Shown here in pieces: positions 1 through 8,064 of a stretch of DNA of 64,000 nucleotides (position 1 is the first letter of the stretch; each line of letters begins with the position of its first letter). The position numbers and the translations under genes were made by a program. Under the pieces are notes generated by a model that was not told the origin of the DNA, did no database searches, and saw nothing but the letters and a program-made list of their open reading frames with translations. Source of the DNA: an uncultured archaeon (GTDB lineage: Archaea; Aenigmatarchaeota; Aenigmatarchaeia; Aenigmatarchaeales; Aenigmatarchaeaceae). The stretch is from NCBI GenBank assembly GCA_964353745.1, contig CAYGWD010000001.1, positions 3,440-67,439 on the forward strand, in the 5' to 3' direction.

Positions 1-97
1 CTTTATCAAGAACACTGGACACCTTTCTCTCACTCATTCTAATTCTTGGTAAAGTAAATGTTTAAATGTTTTAGTGTTCTATTTATTTTAGATATTT

Positions 98-409
98 ATG
101 CCAGCAGGAAATACTTTTCCAAATTCTGCTTTAGAAGGTTTAAAACCTAAGCCAAATGTAATCTATATTCCTAAAAAGGAGGATGAATATTCTGCAAAAT
201 CAATACAACATGATAATGTTACGCATTCTGTTTCTATGGCATATTTAGGATATGGTGGTAGAGTTCCAGTAAAAGATGTTGTTAGGTCTCATGTAAATGA
301 AGTTTTTGATGAAATGAGAAAAAATGGCTATAAATCACCATTAGTTTGCCTTGTAGAAAGTGCTATGTGGTCAGATACTCTTATGACTCACCATGAAGAA
401 AGTTGTTAA
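98..409 (+). CDS. hypothetical small protein (103 aa)
   Basis: Intact ORF. An AT-rich TATA-like tttaaat lies about 30 nt upstream of the ATG. No motif recognised. Confidence 0.35.
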   Translation: MPAGNTFPNSALEGLKPKPNVIYIPKKEDEYSAKSIQHDNVTHSVSMAYLGYGGRVPVKDVVRSHVNEVFDEMRKNGYKSPLVCLVESAMWSDTLMTHHEESC

Positions 410-450
410 AAATCATTCTTAGTATCTTTATTAATTATCTATTCTGTGTC

Positions 451-516
451 GCCCTCCCCGTCATCGGTGAATAGCATGAACTGTGCGGAGGGCAGGATTT
501 GAACCAGCGCACACGG
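451..516. repeat. tRNA-3'-end-like element, copy A
   Basis: 7-bp inverted repeat GCCCTCC...GGAGGGC closes a 29-nt loop and is followed by AGGATTTGAACCAGCGCACA. The reverse complement reads GGTTCAAATCCTGCCCTCCGCA, a typical T-arm plus 3' acceptor strand, but no matching 5' half exists. A paralogous copy lies at 5408-5472. Confidence 0.5.
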
Positions 517-1164
517 TTTTCACAAACAATTTTTTATTATTCTTTTTATTTAGGGGAACAAATAATAATATGTGATCAGATGAGGATGAAACTTGTTTTC
601 CCGTTGGTAGCAGTTTTCGCGGTCATAGCTTTAGCCATATTCAGCTATATGGACGAGACATTGCTAGGGATAATAATAGCCGTTGTGATGTTCGTATGGC
701 CGATACTGTTCTTTATTTTAACAAAGTTCATTGAGAACCGCGGCTCTGGGGCAAAGGAAGATAAGAGAGATTTGAAACAGGACATTATTGATGGAGTAGA
801 AGGAGATTCAAAACCTTCAAAAGAAGTTGAGAAAGAAGAATTTATTGTACCACAGAAAAAGGACGCCAACATAGGAATCGCAAAAGAAGAGTTGGAGAAA
901 TTGAAAGGGGCCTCAGATTTGTTGGACGAGGAAAAGAAGGATGGGATGTTGTCTGAGGACGCTTACAACGAAATGAAAAAGCAGAGCAAGGAAGCAATAG
1001 AAAAATTAGAAGAGGAGATAGCAAAGGCCTCTGGAGAGACTGGGGACAAGAAAGTTTATTGCAAAAAAGGCAAGCACTACATTTCTGTGAGGGATTGCCT
1101 ACCTTCGAAAATAGATGGCTATGTCATCTGCCAGGAGCACAACGAAGAGATAAGGGCTGAATAG
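499..1164 (+). CDS. membrane-anchored coiled-coil protein with C-terminal Cys/His cluster
   Basis: Two N-terminal hydrophobic helices, then a K/E-rich coiled-coil stretch. C-terminus reads YCKKGKHY...CLPSK...CQEH. Confidence 0.4.
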   Translation: MNQRTRFSQTIFYYSFYLGEQIIICDQMRMKLVFPLVAVFAVIALAIFSYMDETLLGIIIAVVMFVWPILFFILTKFIENRGSGAKEDKRDLKQDIIDGVEGDSKPSKEVEKEEFIVPQKKDANIGIAKEELEKLKGASDLLDEEKKDGMLSEDAYNEMKKQSKEAIEKLEEEIAKASGETGDKKVYCKKGKHYISVRDCLPSKIDGYVICQEHNEEIRAE

Positions 1165-1165
1165 G

Positions 1166-1585
1166 TCAGCATTTTATAGCCAAGCCATGTCTTTTAGTTC
1201 GTTCCACTTCACTTTTAGGATGTAATTCGTTTCCTCTTGGTTCATGAAGTTCACAAATTTTGCATACTGAAGTTCCTATCTCGAACTCACTTTTAAATCT
1301 TTCTCTGCCTGCTTCGCTTATAGTTTTTTTCTTATAACCTGTGAAATGGCAAAGAACTGCCACTTGTTGTGGGTTATATTCATCACGCATGAAATGCATC
1401 TCAGCATAATTTATAGGAAAAATCCCTGACTTTCTTACCTTTTCATTTTCACAAGCATAAACCTCGAAAAAATTACTCTCGCTTAAAGCTTGACATGATG
1501 GTAACATCATTAAAATTATGTCGGATGCAGCTCCAGCCCCAACAGCATATGCACAATTTCCCCATGTTTGTTCCTGTTTAGTCAT
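1166..1585 (-). CDS. hypothetical protein (139 aa)
   Basis: Intact ORF in the island. No recognised motif. Confidence 0.35.
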   Translation of the reverse strand: MTKQEQTWGNCAYAVGAGAASDIILMMLPSCQALSESNFFEVYACENEKVRKSGIFPINYAEMHFMRDEYNPQQVAVLCHFTGYKKKTISEAGRERFKSEFEIGTSVCKICELHEPRGNELHPKSEVERTKRHGLAIKC

Positions 1586-1658
1586 TTCACCACAACTCTA
1601 AATAGAAAGATAAAAAATTTAAACTCATTGCCTCTCTACCGTCAAACTATGAAAAGCG

Positions 1659-2036
1659 TTAATATTCTTTTATTTTTGCATGCGCTTTAGAAAAACTGGT
1701 AGTAACCGCCATGTCGGTCATTCTCCTTCTGTAACACGGATCATTCTGTAATCTTCCAAGAATTCCTACGTTAATATCAAAACGTTCTCTATGAAGTTCC
1801 CGTCTTTCTCCGTGCCTCAGCGCCTGTTCTTGCAAGTTCATTCTGTACCTCCACGACCTCCTAAAAGGTATATTTAATTCCACTGCAGGTGTTACTTTGA
1901 GCCTCTTTGCAGGTAGTTTAACTTCATAACTTGCATCTTCAGTCCATGGAATTTCAACAGACATAAAAACACTATTAAAGATATAGTTAGAAGAAATATA
2001 AATCCTTATAGAAAGATTAGCTTTGTTCAAGCTCAT
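1659..2036 (-). CDS. hypothetical protein (125 aa), translationally coupled to upstream 340-aa gene
   Basis: ATGA start/stop overlap with the 2033..3055 ORF. Confidence 0.4.
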   Translation of the reverse strand: MSLNKANLSIRIYISSNYIFNSVFMSVEIPWTEDASYEVKLPAKRLKVTPAVELNIPFRRSWRYRMNLQEQALRHGERRELHRERFDINVGILGRLQNDPCYRRRMTDMAVTTSFSKAHAKIKEY

Positions 2037-3055
2037 GCATTAAGACTTTTTTGTTTCTCTGTGAGCTTGTTTATTTGTTCTTTTAGTTCTTTTTCTATAC
2101 TAACTCTCTCTTCTTCAAAGTCTATCCTGCTTATCGCATAGTGCGGGTTCCAATTACAATGGCATAAATCAGTTATGCCATATAGAATTCCTTTTCTTCC
2201 TTCCTCGATAAGGTTTTTAATTATGTCCTTTCTTTTGGTCTGGTCTCTAGGGAAGTTCTCCGTTCTTCTGTATTCAGGTTTCCATCCTCTCCTAGCGATC
2301 AAGAGTTCTATTTTTGACAGGTTGCTGTTTTCAAAGTCTTTTTCTAAGGTCTTTTTTTGTTTTTCCAGCCAGATTTCCGGCAACCAATCGGCAACAGGTT
2401 TTGGAACATCTAAAATAGAGATGGTCTCGCACCCTTGCTCGCCCCTATCCTCTGCATATCTTATATTGTCTATGAACATCTGGGATTTTGGAACCTTTTC
2501 CAGAGATGTAATAATCCTTTCGTATTGTTTGTCAAAACATACTGCTTGCTCTTCTAGAATTTTTTTCTGTGTCTCCAGTTCCTTTGTGTCTGTCCTGTCA
2601 AATCTTACTAGGACCTCGTCGCCGGTATAATGAGTTGAAACATAACCTTTTTCTTCCAAATCTCTTACATAATCTCTTGCTCTGCCGAAATTAACTGTCT
2701 GAATGTTGCCTATGAATTTTAAAAGTTTTATTTGTTTGTCCAGAGTCTCTGTCATTCTTTTTCTGTCGTATACATCAATCTCTGCACTGCTTTCACCATG
2801 AATTAGATCAAATACTGTACAAGCCTCTAATGGAAGCGTATTTGACTTTTCCAAAACATCTGCCATCAGGTTCCTGGCGTGAAACGCAGACACGTCACCA
2901 TCGAAGCTATAAACTATTTTAGGTCTCGTCTCGTGTTCAACAATTTTAGCAGTAGCATTTTCCATTTTCCCGACTATTTTTTGATAGTCCTCAAGCTGTT
3001 CTTTGATGCTTTCCATCAAATATGTCAGCTCTATCTGAGGTTTAGAATTTTTCAT
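2033..3055 (-). CDS. hypothetical protein (340 aa), coiled-coil rich
   Basis: Long intact ORF. No integrase, nuclease or NTPase motif recognised by eye. Confidence 0.45.
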   Translation of the reverse strand: MKNSKPQIELTYLMESIKEQLEDYQKIVGKMENATAKIVEHETRPKIVYSFDGDVSAFHARNLMADVLEKSNTLPLEACTVFDLIHGESSAEIDVYDRKRMTETLDKQIKLLKFIGNIQTVNFGRARDYVRDLEEKGYVSTHYTGDEVLVRFDRTDTKELETQKKILEEQAVCFDKQYERIITSLEKVPKSQMFIDNIRYAEDRGEQGCETISILDVPKPVADWLPEIWLEKQKKTLEKDFENSNLSKIELLIARRGWKPEYRRTENFPRDQTKRKDIIKNLIEEGRKGILYGITDLCHCNWNPHYAISRIDFEEERVSIEKELKEQINKLTEKQKSLNA

Positions 3056-3211
3056 TATTATCGTATTTTAATACGAAACTTAAAGATTTAAACTTGATTA
3101 GAAACTATCCTATAATTTTATTATGGAGCAATAAGATTATGATTTGTCAACTATATCCAATATTTTTTCATTTCTTATATAATTACTAAAATAATATTAA
3201 TTTTTTAATCC

Positions 3212-3505
3212 CTAAGATCTTTTCGTGTGATAATTGTATAATGCTTCTTCGCCTAATCCTGTAATATAAATACCAAATGAATTTTCAACAATATAATTAG
3301 CATGCGTTAACCTCAGTAAGAAACCTGCATCAGTTTTTCCTCTTGAACCTGAAACTTTGTGCAGCTTACTTCTTGAAGATCTTGAAGGTTCGTAGATTTT
3401 TCTGCGCTCTTGCAGATGTTCCAATATCCTTACCTCTGTCTTGAACAACCTATCAGGTCTGTATGTGCTTGTCGGTTCGTTGGAAGTACCGTCAACCCAT
3501 ACCAT
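3212..3505 (-). CDS. hypothetical basic protein (97 aa)
   Basis: Intact ORF flanked by repeated sequence motifs (see findings). Confidence 0.3.
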   Translation of the reverse strand: MVWVDGTSNEPTSTYRPDRLFKTEVRILEHLQERRKIYEPSRSSRSKLHKVSGSRGKTDAGFLLRLTHANYIVENSFGIYITGLGEEALYNYHTKRS

Positions 3506-3728
3506 ATCAAATATATCAATAAATAGAAATTTAAATCTGTAATCTTATTACCCAGCAATAAGACTATCCTATAATTGTTCTCTATGTTTTTTAACTTTCT
3601 CAGATAATGTGTAGGCTTTCTTTGCTACCTTGTTCTTCTTCCTTAGAGATTTGATGCCAACCCAACCAATCAGAGCGTTTGTCTTACTGTTAGTGAAAAC
3701 CTTATTTTAATACCACCAATAATTAAGT

Positions 3729-4895
3729 ATGTCAATAGAAGTTTTATCATCCATATTTCTGGCAGCATCATTGTTCAGCCTTTTCTATGCCCTTAACTTT
3801 AAGAAACCTAGTCCACCAAAAGAACCAAAAGTCTTGCCAAAGGTCAGCGTCATGACATATGCCTACATCAACGACTGGGCAGGAAATGTGATAAAGAGGA
3901 AGATAGAAAACTTCCTTGATCTGAATTATCCGAAAGACAAGTATGAGATAATAGTTTATGACAACGGGTCGACTGGCAGAACTTTAAAGATATGCAAGGA
4001 ATACGCAAAGAAAGGTCTGATAAAGCATTACAGAAGCGACAAGGGTTACAACAGAAAGGGTTTGGTCCTTGACGACGTGATAAGGGATGTCGCCAAAGGA
4101 GATATAATCGCTCTTACTGATCCTGATGGAATATGCGAAAGGGACTGGCTGATGAAACATGTCTGCAACCTGATGAGCAGCAAAAAAATCGGAGCTTCCA
4201 TAGGAATGGTTTTCTGCGGCAACTGGTACAAAAACTTTTTCACTAGGATGAGAGCAATCGAGGATGTTTGGATGATTGATGTCGCATCCTTGGGAAGAAT
4301 AAGTGATGTGCAATTCATTTGCGGTGCCAACTATTCCTTTAAGAGAAAGGCATGGAAGGATGCCGGTGGTCATGGCAAAACACTTATCGAGGACGCAGAA
4401 ATAGCTAACAGGCTGCAGAAAGGCGGATGGAGGATAGCTGTTACTGATGCTGCCGTATGGCAAGAGGAAGTAGAGGACATATATGATTTTTTCATACAGA
4501 GATTGAGATGGTACAGCACTCCTATGGGTATTATCTTTCGCGAGAAGAAAACTATTTCAACAATCTTGTCTATCAGCCCTTGGTCGATACAGACTGTAAG
4601 TCTGTTCTCGCTGATTGCCTTTATTTTTGCAAATAACTTGCCATTGCGCATCTTCTCTCTGGCTCCATTTTTAATCTCAATCCTAGCTCTTGTCATAGGA
4701 CTGGTCAAAATGAAAGAGAAAAAGTTCATTCCGTTCATACTGCCCTACTTGACCTTTGATGCCGCAGTGTCTCTTATCTGTTTTATAGCGGCAAAAATTC
4801 TAAACATACTAAAGAAAGAGGTCAGATGGGAAAGGCTATCAAAGTGCAGATACTATCACAACGGAACCAAAATAAAAATTAATAGTGGCTATTAG
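3729..4895 (+). CDS. family-2 glycosyltransferase with processive-type QxxRW motif and C-terminal TM helices
   Basis: YDNGSTGRT (DxD-region), DPDG, and QRLRW followed by four hydrophobic helices. This resembles cellulose/chitin/hyaluronan-synthase-like GT2. Confidence 0.7.
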   Translation: MSIEVLSSIFLAASLFSLFYALNFKKPSPPKEPKVLPKVSVMTYAYINDWAGNVIKRKIENFLDLNYPKDKYEIIVYDNGSTGRTLKICKEYAKKGLIKHYRSDKGYNRKGLVLDDVIRDVAKGDIIALTDPDGICERDWLMKHVCNLMSSKKIGASIGMVFCGNWYKNFFTRMRAIEDVWMIDVASLGRISDVQFICGANYSFKRKAWKDAGGHGKTLIEDAEIANRLQKGGWRIAVTDAAVWQEEVEDIYDFFIQRLRWYSTPMGIIFREKKTISTILSISPWSIQTVSLFSLIAFIFANNLPLRIFSLAPFLISILALVIGLVKMKEKKFIPFILPYLTFDAAVSLICFIAAKILNILKKEVRWERLSKCRYYHNGTKIKINSGY

Positions 4896-4945
4896 GAAGC
4901 TTTATCAAGAATATCTTTTGGCATTATAATCATTTTACGATTCTT

Positions 4946-5368
4946 CTATTTTACTGGTTCATCAAAAGTCTCTAAAACACTCTCAACATTTCTCAATATG
5001 TCTTTAAATTGTTGGGTTGACTCTTTACCTATTATTTCACCGCTTTCTAAACCAGTATAAACTTTTACACATTGACTCCAAACATTCACTTCGACATTTT
5101 TTAGAATAGGTATTTTAACTTCAACAACATCAATATCTTTCTTTTTAACTTTTCCTCTATAAGATTCTGATAATTTAGTATATATTTTTTCTATTAAAGT
5201 TTGTCGCCTTTCTTCGCTCAAATCTTCACATGGTATAGGAAATCTACTTTTTTCAGTAGGTATTCTTTTTAAACGATTATACCTTACAGATCCTTCTAAA
5301 CCTATATCATTATCAACGAAGTATTTTCCAGCTATCTGAAAACAACTGTCAGAAAGTATTTTTGACAT
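4946..5368 (-). CDS. hypothetical protein (140 aa)
   Basis: Intact ORF. No motif. Confidence 0.35.
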   Translation of the reverse strand: MSKILSDSCFQIAGKYFVDNDIGLEGSVRYNRLKRIPTEKSRFPIPCEDLSEERRQTLIEKIYTKLSESYRGKVKKKDIDVVEVKIPILKNVEVNVWSQCVKVYTGLESGEIIGKESTQQFKDILRNVESVLETFDEPVK

Positions 5369-5407
5369 GTTATTATAGAGGATAGTAAATTTTAAATGCT
5401 TATTGCC

Positions 5408-5472
5408 GCCCTCACGTCTGCTGTGAAGAACATCCTATGTGTGGAGGGCAGGATTTGAACTAGCGAACATCA
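5408..5472. repeat. tRNA-3'-end-like element, copy B
   Basis: GCCCTCA...GGAGGGC stem with a 28-nt loop, followed by AGGATTTGAACTAGCGAACA. The 18-nt core GGAGGGCAGGATTTGAAC is identical to copy A and the flanks are about 65 percent identical. Confidence 0.5.
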
Positions 5473-5901
5473 ACCTAACGCTACTAGAATAGCACCAACA
5501 ACCATCAAAGCAGTTCCTATCGCTATCTTCAAGCTAACCTTCTCTCCAAGTATGAGGAAAGCTAGGATTATGACAAAAACTATGCTCAGTCTATCTATGG
5601 GAGCAACCTGCGATGCTTTGCCAATCTTTAGAGCAAGAAAATAAAACAGCCACGACAACGCTCCTGCTATGCCACTTAAAAATATATAAGACAGTGCTTT
5701 GGAATTGGAAAATATTGTTGTCATATTCTCTATTTTTCCTGTAAATGCTATAACCATAACAAGAAACCCAAACATTATGCCTGCTCTTATCATAGTAGCC
5801 GCGTTAGCATCGATTCCTTCCAAACCGATTTTACCGAATATCGCCACCAATGCAGCCATAGCTGCCGACAATATAGCAAATATCAACCAAGTGTAATCCA
5901 T
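5470..5901 (-). CDS. EamA/DMT-family small membrane transporter
   Basis: 143 aa with four hydrophobic helices. The pattern is EamA-like: FGKIGLEG...GIAGALSWLFYFLALK...PIDRLSIVFVIILAFLILGE. Confidence 0.55.
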   Translation of the reverse strand: MDYTWLIFAILSAAMAALVAIFGKIGLEGIDANAATMIRAGIMFGFLVMVIAFTGKIENMTTIFSNSKALSYIFLSGIAGALSWLFYFLALKIGKASQVAPIDRLSIVFVIILAFLILGEKVSLKIAIGTALMVVGAILVALG

Positions 5902-5905
5902 ATCA

Positions 5906-7192
5906 TCATTTTATTTTCTCTAGTTTCTTGATGCCGTTCATGTAGGGCCAGAGTGTTTTCGGAATTAGCACGGTTCCGTCTTTCTGTTGGCATTGCTCTA
6001 TCAAAGCTACCATTGTCCTTGACGTCGCTATGGCAGTATTATTCAATGTGTGGACAAATCCTTTTGGAGCCTGACCTTCCTTATCCCTGTATCTTAAATT
6101 CAATCTTCTAGCCTGATAGTCTATGCAATTGGAGTTCGAACCTACCTCACGATAAACTCCGTCAGACATCCACAACTCAACATCATAAGTCTTCGATGAG
6201 ACGACGCCAGTCTCGCCTGAGCATAAAACTATTGTTCTGAAGTGCAGGCCTAGATTCTTGTATAGCTCCTCGGAATTCTTTTGCAACTCCTCATGACAGT
6301 CCCAGGAATCTTCAGGCAGGCAGAAGATGAACTGCTCTACCTTGTTGAACTGGTGCATTCTGAACAATCCCTTGGTGTATTTGCCATGAGCTCCTACCTC
6401 TTTCCTGAAGTTAGTCGAGAAGCCGACAATCTTCAGAGGCAAATCTTTTTTATTCAAGACCTCGTCCTTGAGCATGGCTCCTATCGGATGCTCTGCTGTT
6501 GCAACCATGTATGCATCCTCGTTCTCAATCTTATACATCACGTTCTCAAAATCAGACAGATCAACCATGCCGCTATAAGGCTCTCTTCTGAGCATGTGCG
6601 GCGGGTAAATGAACAAATAACCTTTTTTAATCAAGAGTTCTATTGCATAATTTTGCAGAGCTCTGTCCAGCAACGCCAAAGGACCTTTCAAATAGAAGAA
6701 TCCCCTGCCTATGACCTTCTCTGCTCTTTCATCGTCTATCAATCCAAGATTCTTGAGAATGTCCAAATGGTTCTTTGGCTCGAAATTAAATTTAGGCGGC
6801 TTGCCATACTTTCTTACCTCTACGTTTCCCGTTTCTCCCCTTGCAATAGGAACAGACTCATGGAGTAGGTTGGGCATTCTCATTAAAGAAACATCAATAT
6901 TATCCTTTAGCTTAATAACATCTTCTTCCAATGTATTGATCTTGTTAGGGATTTCCGAAGCTTCCTTGATTTTGTGGGAAGCGTCCTTGCCATCTTTCTT
7001 TAACTTTGCTATCTCCTCTGACACTATATTCCTGTCATGCTTTAACTTCTCCAGCTCTTGTAGCTCTTCTCTATACTTTTTGTCATTGATTACCAATTCC
7101 TTCAGAAGCTTTAACTTCTCTTCGTCTCCTCTCTTCTTTAAGTTCTCTTCAATGATATGAGGGTTTTCCCTTATTATTTTTATGTCAAGCAT
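5906..7192 (-). CDS. serS: seryl-tRNA synthetase
   Basis: 428 aa. N-terminal coiled-coil arm. Class-II motifs including FSTNFRKEVGAHGKYTKGLFRMHQFNKVEQ and GFVHTLNNTAIATSRTMVAL. Confidence 0.9.
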   Translation of the reverse strand: MLDIKIIRENPHIIEENLKKRGDEEKLKLLKELVINDKKYREELQELEKLKHDRNIVSEEIAKLKKDGKDASHKIKEASEIPNKINTLEEDVIKLKDNIDVSLMRMPNLLHESVPIARGETGNVEVRKYGKPPKFNFEPKNHLDILKNLGLIDDERAEKVIGRGFFYLKGPLALLDRALQNYAIELLIKKGYLFIYPPHMLRREPYSGMVDLSDFENVMYKIENEDAYMVATAEHPIGAMLKDEVLNKKDLPLKIVGFSTNFRKEVGAHGKYTKGLFRMHQFNKVEQFIFCLPEDSWDCHEELQKNSEELYKNLGLHFRTIVLCSGETGVVSSKTYDVELWMSDGVYREVGSNSNCIDYQARRLNLRYRDKEGQAPKGFVHTLNNTAIATSRTMVALIEQCQQKDGTVLIPKTLWPYMNGIKKLEKIK

Positions 7193-7221
7193 CTATTCAC
7201 CTCTTTATATTTTTTAGGTTT

Positions 7222-8064
7222 GTGTTTAAATCTTTTAGTTTTTATTTAATTTTCATGAAAACGATTGAGCAGCTGATGAAAGATGGCTTGATAAAACAAT
7301 TTGAAAATAATTTTCCAGAGAGCCAATATTCAGCGGTTAGGAAAACATTTGAGGATGAGAAATTTGTAAACAAACACAACGGGCAGATTCCGCTGCTAGA
7401 GACGAGGCGACTCTGTCAGACTGGAAGCTCTAAGGATAGCATCAACCTGCTTGATTTGGGTTGCGGTACTGGCAATCAAATAGAATATTCTACATGGTTA
7501 GAAGGCGAATGGTCGACCGGACTTGATATTTCCAAAAGAATGTTAGAAAAAGCTGCTGATAAACTAAGGGGAACATGGGGTAAATGGAGATATAAGAAAG
7601 CAATTGCACTTGTCCATGCAAACATGAGTGATTCATTAAAAAATGATTTCTATGCACTCTTAGACAAACCTTATCTCGTAGATAGGCTAAGGCCAAAAAA
7701 GGCTGAGAAATTTAAAGCGATTAAAGATAGAAAAATTGCTGAAGTCAAAGAGATATTCAAAGGCAAATCAGGCAAGTACTTTGACATCATAACTTCCAAT
7801 CTTTCATTCCCAATTTATACGCCTCCCGAGAAGATAGAAGGTGTTGTTAAGTTTTACACTGAACGGTTGAAACCTGGCGGTTTGTGGCATATGTCGTATG
7901 CATTCGACCATGAAAATGTAGAAAAAGATAGCATATGGTTCAGCCACGACCCAGAAGCAATAAAAAGAGTCATGGAAGACTACAACATGAAATTGATAAA
8001 AGATAAAAGTAATTGCCTGCATTGTGAAGTATCTGTTGAACAGATTTATAGGTCAGATAATTAA
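7222..8064 (+). CDS. class I SAM-dependent methyltransferase
   Basis: Motif I LDLGCGTGNQ. Rossmann-type spacing. Confidence 0.55.
   Translation: MFKSFSFYLIFMKTIEQLMKDGLIKQFENNFPESQYSAVRKTFEDEKFVNKHNGQIPLLETRRLCQTGSSKDSINLLDLGCGTGNQIEYSTWLEGEWSTGLDISKRMLEKAADKLRGTWGKWRYKKAIALVHANMSDSLKNDFYALLDKPYLVDRLRPKKAEKFKAIKDRKIAEVKEIFKGKSGKYFDIITSNLSFPIYTPPEKIEGVVKFYTERLKPGGLWHMSYAFDHENVEKDSIWFSHDPEAIKRVMEDYNMKLIKDKSNCLHCEVSVEQIYRSDN

Follow-up and report, generated by a model that had tools for sequence, protein, structure and literature searches.

How did the genes lying between two copies of what looks like the end of a tRNA gene come to be there? This question is raised by a stretch of 64,000 nucleotides from the genome of an uncultured archaeon of the Aenigmatarchaeota (hereafter the window), in which two short direct repeats, copy A and copy B, bracket about 5 kb of DNA. 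The initial annotation had read the repeats as att-site remnants of a degraded or unusual element integrated at a tRNA 3′ end, and had offered an unrecognised structured RNA and Nanoarchaeota-type split tRNA 3′ halves as alternatives. Each repeat reproduces part of the 3′ end of a tRNA-Leu gene; copy B lies directly after the stop codon of an EamA transporter gene, a position retained throughout this family of Aenigmatarchaeota, and is a resident attB-like target site devoid of a tRNA. We consider it likely that the two copies are the junctions of site-specific insertion, with att-type direct repeats at a tRNA-Leu-tail core. The att-remnant reading is thereby supported by the identity of the core, by empty and occupied alleles in related genomes and by an integrase gene beside one of the cores, with three refinements: the tRNA is tRNA-Leu, the site is an orphan 28-nt fragment, and the 5 kb comprises several small cassettes instead of one element. 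The parts of the two copies are the following:

5440-5467, minus strand: copy B core, TTCGCTAGTTCAAATCCTGCCCTCCACA, orphan tRNA-Leu 3′ fragment running from the end of the variable arm and the T-stem to the discriminator
5404-5439, minus strand: copy B trailer, P′-arm-like, CATAGGATGTTCTTCACAGCAGACGTGAGGGCGGCAA
484-511, minus strand: copy A core, TGCGCTGGTTCAAATCCTGCCCTCCGCA, tRNA-Leu 3′ fragment
451-483, minus strand: copy A trailer, CAGTTCATGCTATTCACCGATGACGGGGAGGGC, with the arm GGAGGGC at 451-457
512-531, minus strand: copy A left flank, TTGTTTGTGAAAACCGTGTG, a shortened form of the conserved cassette 3′ arm, which holds the “His-like” motif discussed below

The repeats match the 3′ end of tRNA-Leu genes

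The 18-mer GGAGGGCAGGATTTGAAC occurs on the plus strand at 487-504 and 5443-5460, which bears out the identical core reported initially, and has no further copy in the 64 kb at up to 2 mismatches (0 copies expected from shuffled sequence). A 22-mer version searched with up to 7 mismatches again returned just copies A and B. The direct repeat spans about 55-65 nt, with 78% identity between 459-513 and 5415-5469. We scanned the minus-strand 21-mer GTTCAAATCCTGCCCTCCRCA against 185,579 species genomes of bacteria and archaea, one per species, and obtained 64 loci, archaeal except one, most of which are the last 21 nt of a tRNA-Leu gene; the anticodons GAG, TAG, CAG and CAA were all seen. According to ARAGORN, the core is the exact tRNA-Leu 3′ end in 40 or more archaeal loci, the intact genes reading 5′ GCGGAGG ... 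TTCGCAGGTTCAAATCCTGCCCTCCGCA 3′. The T-arm and acceptor 3′ strand proposed from the reverse complement thus correspond letter for letter to the 3′ end of tRNA-Leu. More precisely, the window copies align to the final 27 nt of tRNA-Leu(GAG) plus its trailer, and the trailer and core of copy A are 86% identical over 58 nt to the intact tRNA-Leu(GAG) 3′ end and trailer of one of the comparative loci (designated by L numbers; here L040).

The resemblance stops short of a tRNA gene. The T-stem is broken, with GCTGG in copy A and GCTAG in copy B for the GCAGG of tRNA-Leu, and no tRNA match was found upstream of either core. ARAGORN, in default and intron modes, detected no tRNA gene in the window, in agreement with the initial failure to complete a canonical tRNA from either copy. 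Because the target is an orphan 28-nt fragment and not a tRNA gene, the 5′ acceptor strand is lacking. The block common to all copies is (G)TTCAAATCCTGCCCTCCGCA, which extends from the T-loop to the discriminator base, with the identity beginning in every case at G/TTCAAAT and running through to that base. The 18-mer is multi-copy, with about 4-6 exact copies per metagenome-assembled genome (MAG), as a generic genome-wide repeat of the kind considered in the initial annotation would be; generic it is not, the copies examined in Aenigmatarchaeota all being tRNA-Leu genes or else fragments located at resident sites or at insertion junctions.

The sequences upstream of the two cores are different. 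The core of copy B starts 2 nt past the EamA stop codon and its upstream flank is the 3′ end of that gene, while copy A is preceded by an A+T-rich flank that recurs at L076 (core at 4066) and L101 (core at 5456-5477) and is related to the cassette 3′ arm 1, AAGAAAACCGTAGGTTGTC. The His-like UUGUGAA noticed in copy A is present, as TTGTGAA, within this conserved flank (TTATTTGTGAAAAACCGTGTGCGCTR, shared with L076 and L101) and therefore does not represent an anticodon loop.

Other arrangements of tRNA 3′ ends were encountered among the archaeal loci. In Thermoplasmata, tRNA-Leu(CAG) genes (L011 5355-5420, L012 200-280, L042, L048 7044-7129 and L068) and a tRNA-Ile gene (L056) have their own 3′ end repeated in inverted orientation 16-45 nt downstream, as a perfect copy of 12-19 nt. 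Several of these stems run beyond the tRNA end in sequence that is genome-specific yet complementary, and in L048, L056 and L011 ..GGAGTTC(GATCG) adjoins the inverted copy. On contigs of Asgard archaea and Nanohalarchaeota (L005 4586-4681, L026 78-173 and L032 6296-6394), there are two copies of the tRNA-Leu 3′ end at a distance of 75-78 nt, and the spacers have the motif TAGTGGCAGTGATTTG in common; these doublets may represent a cassette in minimal, empty form, or else a tRNA gene of unusual structure.

Empty and occupied states in related genomes

Copy B lies beside two genes that form a conserved chromosomal flank:

5470-5901, minus strand: EamA transporter gene (Pfam)
5906-7192, minus strand: seryl-tRNA synthetase (SerRS) gene (Pfam)

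The SerRS sequence assigns this DNA to the Aenigmatarchaeota, a DPANN phylum. The EamA/SerRS synteny is found in L001, L002, L007, L084 and L114, and in every relative retrieved via SerRS or the pattern GCTRGTTCAAATCCTGCCCTCC the tRNA-Leu fragment comes right behind the stop codon of EamA or of SerRS (among them L001, L002, L003, L007, L083, L084, L103, L106 and L114). The site, which is followed by a topoisomerase gene, was observed in the following states:

L007, empty: core, 60 nt, topoisomerase IA start codon
L106, empty: SerRS, core, about 100 nt, topoisomerase
L091, occupied: one 600-nt cassette, second core, topoisomerase
L084 and L101 (one 103-kb contig), occupied, both flanks present: EamA, core, 2.65 kb, GT2, ORF194, core, 880 nt, topoisomerase
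L114 (SerRS 98% identical to that of the window): two small cassettes
L001 (SerRS 98%): degenerate core, 5.5 kb of other genes, second core, GT2, ORF194
L002 (SerRS 95%): two cores 2.2 kb apart, with a Pfam Phage_integrase gene 220 nt past the second core

GT2 and ORF194 are homologues of window genes described below (ORF, open reading frame). The window takes its place in this series with EamA, copy B, 5 kb and copy A, and an empty allele with the same outer flanks is present in its relatives (L007, L106). The contents of the site differ in L001, L002 and L114 although their SerRS are 95-98% identical to that of the window, and some relatives hold islands of more than 10 kb there. In L101, one more cassette separates the copy-A-type site from the topoisomerase gene, with a truncated arm and a decayed core before the topoisomerase promoter. 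L003 was examined as an exact empty allele of the window island and rejected, given that it has no homologue of the window's ORF103 and that the flank similarity amounts to just the core and 15 nt; the comparison was based on L007, L106 and L084 with L101.

Two further features of this neighbourhood were recorded. In EamA-less genomes, the SerRS reading frame enters the tRNA fragment and its stop codon is the TAG inside GCGCTAG (..EKMR*; L003 11270-11290, L091, L095, L100, L073 and L106), so that the scar encodes the last residues of an essential enzyme. A beta-CASP RNase gene near SerRS contains a LAGLIDADG intein in one sub-lineage (850 aa; L003 4321-6873, L004 638-3190) and is intein-less in the closest relatives of the window (420 aa; L001 4126-5388).

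The GCGCTR form of the orphan fragment follows no fewer than five distinct conserved genes at their stop codons and is also found beside several other conserved flanks, and three further chromosomal loci were observed in both empty and occupied states. After a gene ending in ..FVPLVGKYGFK*, L096 and L099 have flank, core and flank, and L113 has between the same flanks a core, a 593-nt cassette, a core, an 858-nt cassette and a core. At a second locus, L071 and L090 are empty, L077 carries one cassette with a conserved arm, a decayed core and the same right flank, and L107 carries the cassette that occupies 4896-5472 of the window, with its distal core decayed. At the third, L078, L081 and L111 are empty and L065 has one cassette. 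Insertions bracketed by core repeats with both outer flanks kept are thus seen in L113 and L065, while L077 and L107 retain only decayed remnants of the distal core.

The same cassettes also occur at different sites. The ORF140 cassette is shared by the window and L107, and further such pairs were seen. The GT2 gene adjoins an intact tRNA-Leu(GAG) in L057 and L067 and lies at the orphan site in the lineage of the window; L057, with GT2 at the tRNA gene, and L007, with the empty orphan site, come from the same MAG.

Anatomy of the cassettes

Eleven units lying between successive cores in L046, L065, L067, L074, L091, L097, L113 and L114 measure 391-858 nt and contain one ORF each (93-257 aa), all in the sense of the tRNA; the window retains the outer two cores only. 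Most of these units have a trailer and a promoter-like motif before the ORF and a conserved 3′ arm before the next core. The arm forms a hairpin (9-bp stem, 3-nt loop) with a T-run and exists in a few versions, two of which are the following:

Arm 1: AAGAAAACC-GTA-GGTTGTCTT-TTT
Arm 2: AAGCTTCTT-CTA-AAGAAGCTT-TT

The hairpin arms would be terminator-like. The ORFs are mutually different and none belongs to a Pfam family.

The trailer (consensus CACATCTGATGTTCTTCACCGCTGA..GGAGGGCGGCA) takes up the next 45 nt or so beyond the core; it is found again behind many cores of other genomes, and 19 homologous copies could be aligned. The same trailer is found 3′ of an intact tRNA-Leu(GAG) only where a second core lies downstream (L040, L046, L057 and L067). 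The tRNA-Leu(GAG) genes devoid of a second core have unrelated 3′ flanks (L008, L030 and L039), as does that of L018, where there is only a 6-mismatch core match 4 kb downstream. We therefore conclude that the trailer arrives with the inserted DNA. Its distal arm can pair with the acceptor 3′ strand. The 7-bp stem described initially for both copies exists in copy A (GCCCTCC/GGAGGGC, 451-457 with 487-493, 29-nt loop), whereas copy B has just 6 contiguous pairs (GCCCTC/GAGGGC, the latter at 5408-5413). Across the 19 trailers, the paired state is found in 94.5% of cells. Rfam returned no family at gathering score in the window; the matches at E values up to 10 were chance ones only, with snoZ182 (E 2.9) over copy A.

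A TATA-like box lies at a fixed distance of 16-23 nt from the trailer arm, and the spacing of the arm from the core ranges from 13 to 30 nt. In the window this box belongs to the following feature:

5369-5403, minus strand: promoter-like motif before ORF140, TTTAAAATTTACTATCCTCTATAAT

The same consensus is seen at 59-89 and 7223-7253 and before many cassette ORFs, 16-23 nt past the trailer arm. The motif, TTTAAA followed after about 10 nt by ACTATCCTATAAT or TAGTGTTCTATTT, precedes genes on both strands of the window (59-89, 3103-3139, 3540-3576, 5369-5400 and 7223-7253). Since these genes are unrelated, the TTTAAA...ACTATCCTATAAT motif is probably an ordinary promoter/initiator consensus of the lineage, and its recurrence accounts for several families returned by the repeat finder.

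Gene content of the window island

The region between the copies and just beyond copy A contains the following features:

4896-5472, minus strand: ORF140 cassette, with core, trailer, promoter-like motif, ORF140 (4946-5368) and truncated 3′ arm
3729-4895, plus strand: glycosyltransferase family 2 (GT2) gene (Pfam Glyco_trans_2_3, 6.5e-19)
1165-3690, no strand: variable insert of 2.56 kb, with four ORFans and borders devoid of an intact core
3212-3505, minus strand: ORF97, ORFan in the variable insert
2033-3055, minus strand: ORF340, ORFan in the variable insert
1659-2036, minus strand: ORF125, ORFan in the variable insert
1166-1585, minus strand: ORF139, ORFan in the variable insert
580-1164, plus strand: ORF194, small membrane protein at the distal end of the island
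98-409, plus strand: ORF103, beyond copy A

As initially described, a GT2 gene and otherwise unassigned ORFs lie between the copies: the former is recognised by Pfam, and the remaining island ORFs have no Pfam, PHROG or PADLOC family. The ORF140 cassette is 95% identical to that of L107 over 578 nt, and the homology ends exactly at the GT2 stop codon, which arm 2, cut short at CTTGATAAAGCTTC (4896-4909), abuts. GT2 is a stable cargo of this type of island. Its homologues, with 74-77% aa identity, are found beside an intact tRNA-Leu(GAG) followed by a degenerate core in L057 and L067, and others in the EamA/SerRS island of L001, L084 and L100. Homologues of ORF194 adjoin GT2 in L001, L076 and L084 (L076 being a short contig that carries the GT2-ORF194 unit and does not reach EamA or SerRS), and in L006 and L112 the ORF194 homologue stands alone, directly after the SerRS-side core. 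A Hammerhead_II match inside the GT2 coding sequence (4133-4186; 21.7 bits for a gathering score of 37, E 0.73) is most likely due to chance.

The variable insert is absent in L076 and L084, where GT2 and ORF194 are about 105 nt apart, less than 40 nt of this being non-coding, and is replaced in L001 by a different 1.74 kb. A weak match at about 3600-3690 is a possible decayed core. The ORF340 gene has another history: 1994-3094 of the window is 91% identical to L122 9962-11059, at an unrelated locus after aIF5B (L122-L124) near which no tRNA-Leu core was found. Core-mediated insertion is therefore not the sole process shaping the region, and ORF340 seems to be a mobile ORFan that travelled by a different route. 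We considered ORF340 as a hidden recombinase and dismissed it; its homologues number just 3 among 5.8 billion proteins, and its PHROG match, to HNH, is weak (E 0.005). The sole homologue found of ORF103 lies elsewhere in the genome of L084 (71% aa identity); since copy A has its trailer on the ORF103 side, this gene probably belongs to a further cassette. Taken together, the 5 kb reads as a mosaic of cassettes (ORF140, GT2, ORFans and ORF194) whose internal cores would have decayed.

Weighing the explanations

If the copies are insertion junctions, DNA circles made of core, left arm and right trailer would have been inserted successively at copy B, each insertion leaving one extra copy of the core. 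The 5 kb of the window would be the product of accretion followed by decay, with the ORF140 cassette, the GT2 cassette, the ORFan insert and ORF194 in succession and copy A at the junction with the next cassette, and the 7-bp stem would be part of the trailer brought by each cassette. A tyrosine integrase acting in trans would probably perform the recombination, with a crossover in the T-loop: the shared block is that expected for a T-loop-crossing tyrosine integrase, and the two variant cores of L001 are distributed as expected for a crossover within TTCAAAT, in one case only. The integrase gene of L002 (Phage_integrase, 3.9e-16) is the sole one beside a core among about 125 loci, and tblastn and phmmer found homologues of the integrases only in L002/L079 and L003/L004.

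Several observations weigh against this interpretation. Neither copy lies within an intact tRNA gene, and the internal cassette borders of the window have no intact core. No integrase was found in the window with two Aenigmatarchaeota integrases as tblastn and phmmer queries, as the initial annotation had also stated, nor near the other cores in the about 125 loci except in L002. No attP-bearing virus, plasmid or free circle was found, the 21-mer having 0 matches in 2.9 million viral contigs, and blastn of positions 1-8000 against phages gave no match. All comparative loci are from metagenome assemblies, and the distal flank beyond copy A lies past the edge of the window, to the left of which exact-protein look-ups retrieved contigs of 1-3 kb reaching 81 nt. 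Finally, the orphan cores are perfect at empty sites even though the SerRS genes of the genomes concerned share only about 70% DNA identity, which is unexpected for a mere scar and calls for selection, repeated use or gene conversion.

This conservation is what a dispersed intergenic repeat would show, i.e. a MITE- or REP-like unit (miniature inverted-repeat transposable element; repetitive extragenic palindrome) composed of tRNA tail, hairpin and promoter and used by the host as a terminator or as punctuation, around which gene content changes by ordinary homologous recombination and no integrase is involved. The GCGCTR variant lying directly behind conserved genes and sometimes supplying their stop codon, the fixed spacing between trailer and TATA-like box, and the near absence of integrases around the cores all fit such a unit. 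We nevertheless regard it as unlikely. Empty sites hold the 28-nt core alone, with no trailer or hairpin (L007, L106, L096 and L071), and where the distal core is intact the occupied sites gain whole genes enclosed by cores in direct repeat, whose borders are sharp and fall at the T-loop and the discriminator base. Terminal inverted repeats and target-site duplications are absent, and 21 nt of identity is short for homologous recombination.

The copies could also belong to two paralogous genes for a structured small RNA, read from either strand, and the frequently formable GCCCTCC/GGAGGGC stem, the G+C-rich patches in an A+T-rich genome and the presence of an exact complement of at least 6 nt in 19% of copies, compared to 1.7% in shuffles, speak for this. 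However, folding of both strands of both copies gave energies no better than shuffles (z from −0.13 to −0.58), so that the stem alone is no evidence of a structured RNA. Compensatory changes were found at 0 of the 7 pairs in the 19 trailers, a test of low power because the left arm is invariant; in L001, where the left arm is mutated, the right arm is unchanged. The left arm is merely the tRNA acceptor strand, many copies, empty sites included, do not have the second arm, the flanks are different at each copy, and the best Rfam match is the chance snoRNA match noted above. This alternative from the initial annotation is hence very improbable. Candidate C/D-box, H/ACA or K-turn elements were set aside, as the boxes are by inspection not conserved between copies, and so was a short peptide across core and trailer (..SNPALRTAHVLHR*), whose frame differs from the upstream ORFs and which meets an early stop in copy B and L076. 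The other alternative, 3′ halves of a split or permuted tRNA-Leu joined in trans to a 5′ half in the style of Nanoarchaeum equitans, draws on the host being a DPANN archaeon, on the intact T-loop and acceptor strand of the fragment and on the 5′-acceptor-like GGAGGGC downstream, and fails in much the same way. The fragment begins at the T-stem, around position 47 instead of 37/38, and that stem is broken. Upstream, each copy has a different, protein-coding flank, which leaves no leader to pair with a 5′ half; complementary leader and trailer, a bulge-helix-bulge and a break at the intron position were not found. Nothing D-arm-like follows GGAGGGC, which also disposes of a permuted tRNA, the intron mode of ARAGORN finds nothing in the window, and related genomes have intact tRNA-Leu genes with several anticodons. 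We find this explanation scarcely credible.

Comparison with known systems

Insertion at a tRNA-Leu tail has obvious parallels in tRNA-gene islands of the Islander type, which tyrosine integrases insert and whose ends are marked by a regenerated tRNA and a displaced fragment (PMC4383910). Both show direct repeats made of the tRNA 3′ part from the T-loop to the gene end, empty and occupied alleles and tandem accretion; in the window, the repeats at 484-511 and 5440-5467 are exact over 18 nt and near-exact over 21-22 nt. In contrast with Islander-type islands, the target in the window is a 28-nt orphan fragment that follows a protein gene, so that no tRNA is regenerated; the island has no integrase, and the units are as small as 0.5-0.9 kb. 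An intact tRNA-Leu(GAG) with a downstream fragment is found elsewhere in relatives (L046, L057 and L067), and an integrase inside the island by the att site only in L002. Archaea are known to have integrated elements in tandem and others that have no integrase (PMC8371274). The tycheposon islands of Prochlorococcus (10.1101/2020.12.28.424599) likewise are hypervariable islands at fixed sites, in which successive integrations push older ones inward, with partial tRNAs and degraded elements; tycheposons, however, have their own integrase and replication genes and an adjacent full tRNA, whereas nearly all units described here have no recombinase and several sites have no tRNA.

Integrase-less integron cassette arrays (CALINs) have been reported in two Aenigmatarchaeota MAGs (PMC9668308). 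Like them, the arrays found in the relatives of the window consist of short, mostly single-ORF cassettes in one orientation, with a recurring hairpin-capable site, an integrase mostly not nearby and cassettes common to different arrays. On the contrary, the site here is a tRNA-Leu tail of fixed 21-nt sequence and not a structure-defined attC with RYYYAAC/GTTRRRY ends: by inspection only, no such pair and no compensatory changes were seen. The sites are dispersed at no fewer than four chromosomal loci with neither an attI platform nor IntI, no tyrosine recombinase being present in the window or beside the arrays, and each cassette appears to bear its own promoter and terminator-like hairpin. 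The archaeal plasmids and viruses that integrate into tRNA-Leu (pTN3 and the pT26-2 family; PMC8371274) and the tRNA fragments of Thermococcaceae (PMC9897764) share the tRNA-Leu target, the fragment scars and the lost integrase. They differ in that the present elements are far smaller, belong to a DPANN lineage and have no int(N)/int(C) halves of the SSV type (Sulfolobus spindle-shaped virus) at their junctions. Some cores are read through by the start of a short ORF (MKGKMVKEENRRLSFSAGSNPALR), but no integrase-like ORF was found past the core at the other junction, where unrelated ORFs begin, each behind a promoter-like motif of its own.

Cis-mobilisable elements (CIMEs) are att-flanked, recombinase-less bacterial elements that lie next to integrative and conjugative elements and originate from their decay. 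The units described here are similarly bounded by att sites, have no recombination genes and are presumably moved by an integrase in trans; unlike CIMEs, they give the impression of one family in which the arms are conserved and the single genes vary. The scar is thus of a familiar type in an unusual form, namely small single-gene cassette arrays with no integrases and with orphan tRNA-fragment sites.

We tentatively suggest, as a possibility more doubtful than probable, that Aenigmatarchaeota practise an integron-like gene shuffling with the tRNA-Leu tail as recombination site, based on self-contained cassettes of 0.5-0.9 kb (trailer, promoter, one ORFan, hairpin arm and core). Under the same tentative proposal, cassettes might move among tRNA-Leu genes and at least four orphan cores after housekeeping genes by means of a recombinase encoded elsewhere, and the orphan cores might be kept intact through use. 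DPANN archaea have tiny genomes and their gene gain is little understood. If the proposal holds, a large share of their strain-specific ORFans would enter at a few fixed tRNA-Leu-tail sites, in units far smaller than known integrative elements and with no integrase of their own. In genome annotation, tRNA-like fragments of this kind should be labelled neither as tRNAs or split tRNAs nor as small-RNA genes. The 21-mer and its trailer would then provide a sequence tag for hypervariable regions and recent gains in uncultured hosts, and would point to an archaeal counterpart of cassette capture.

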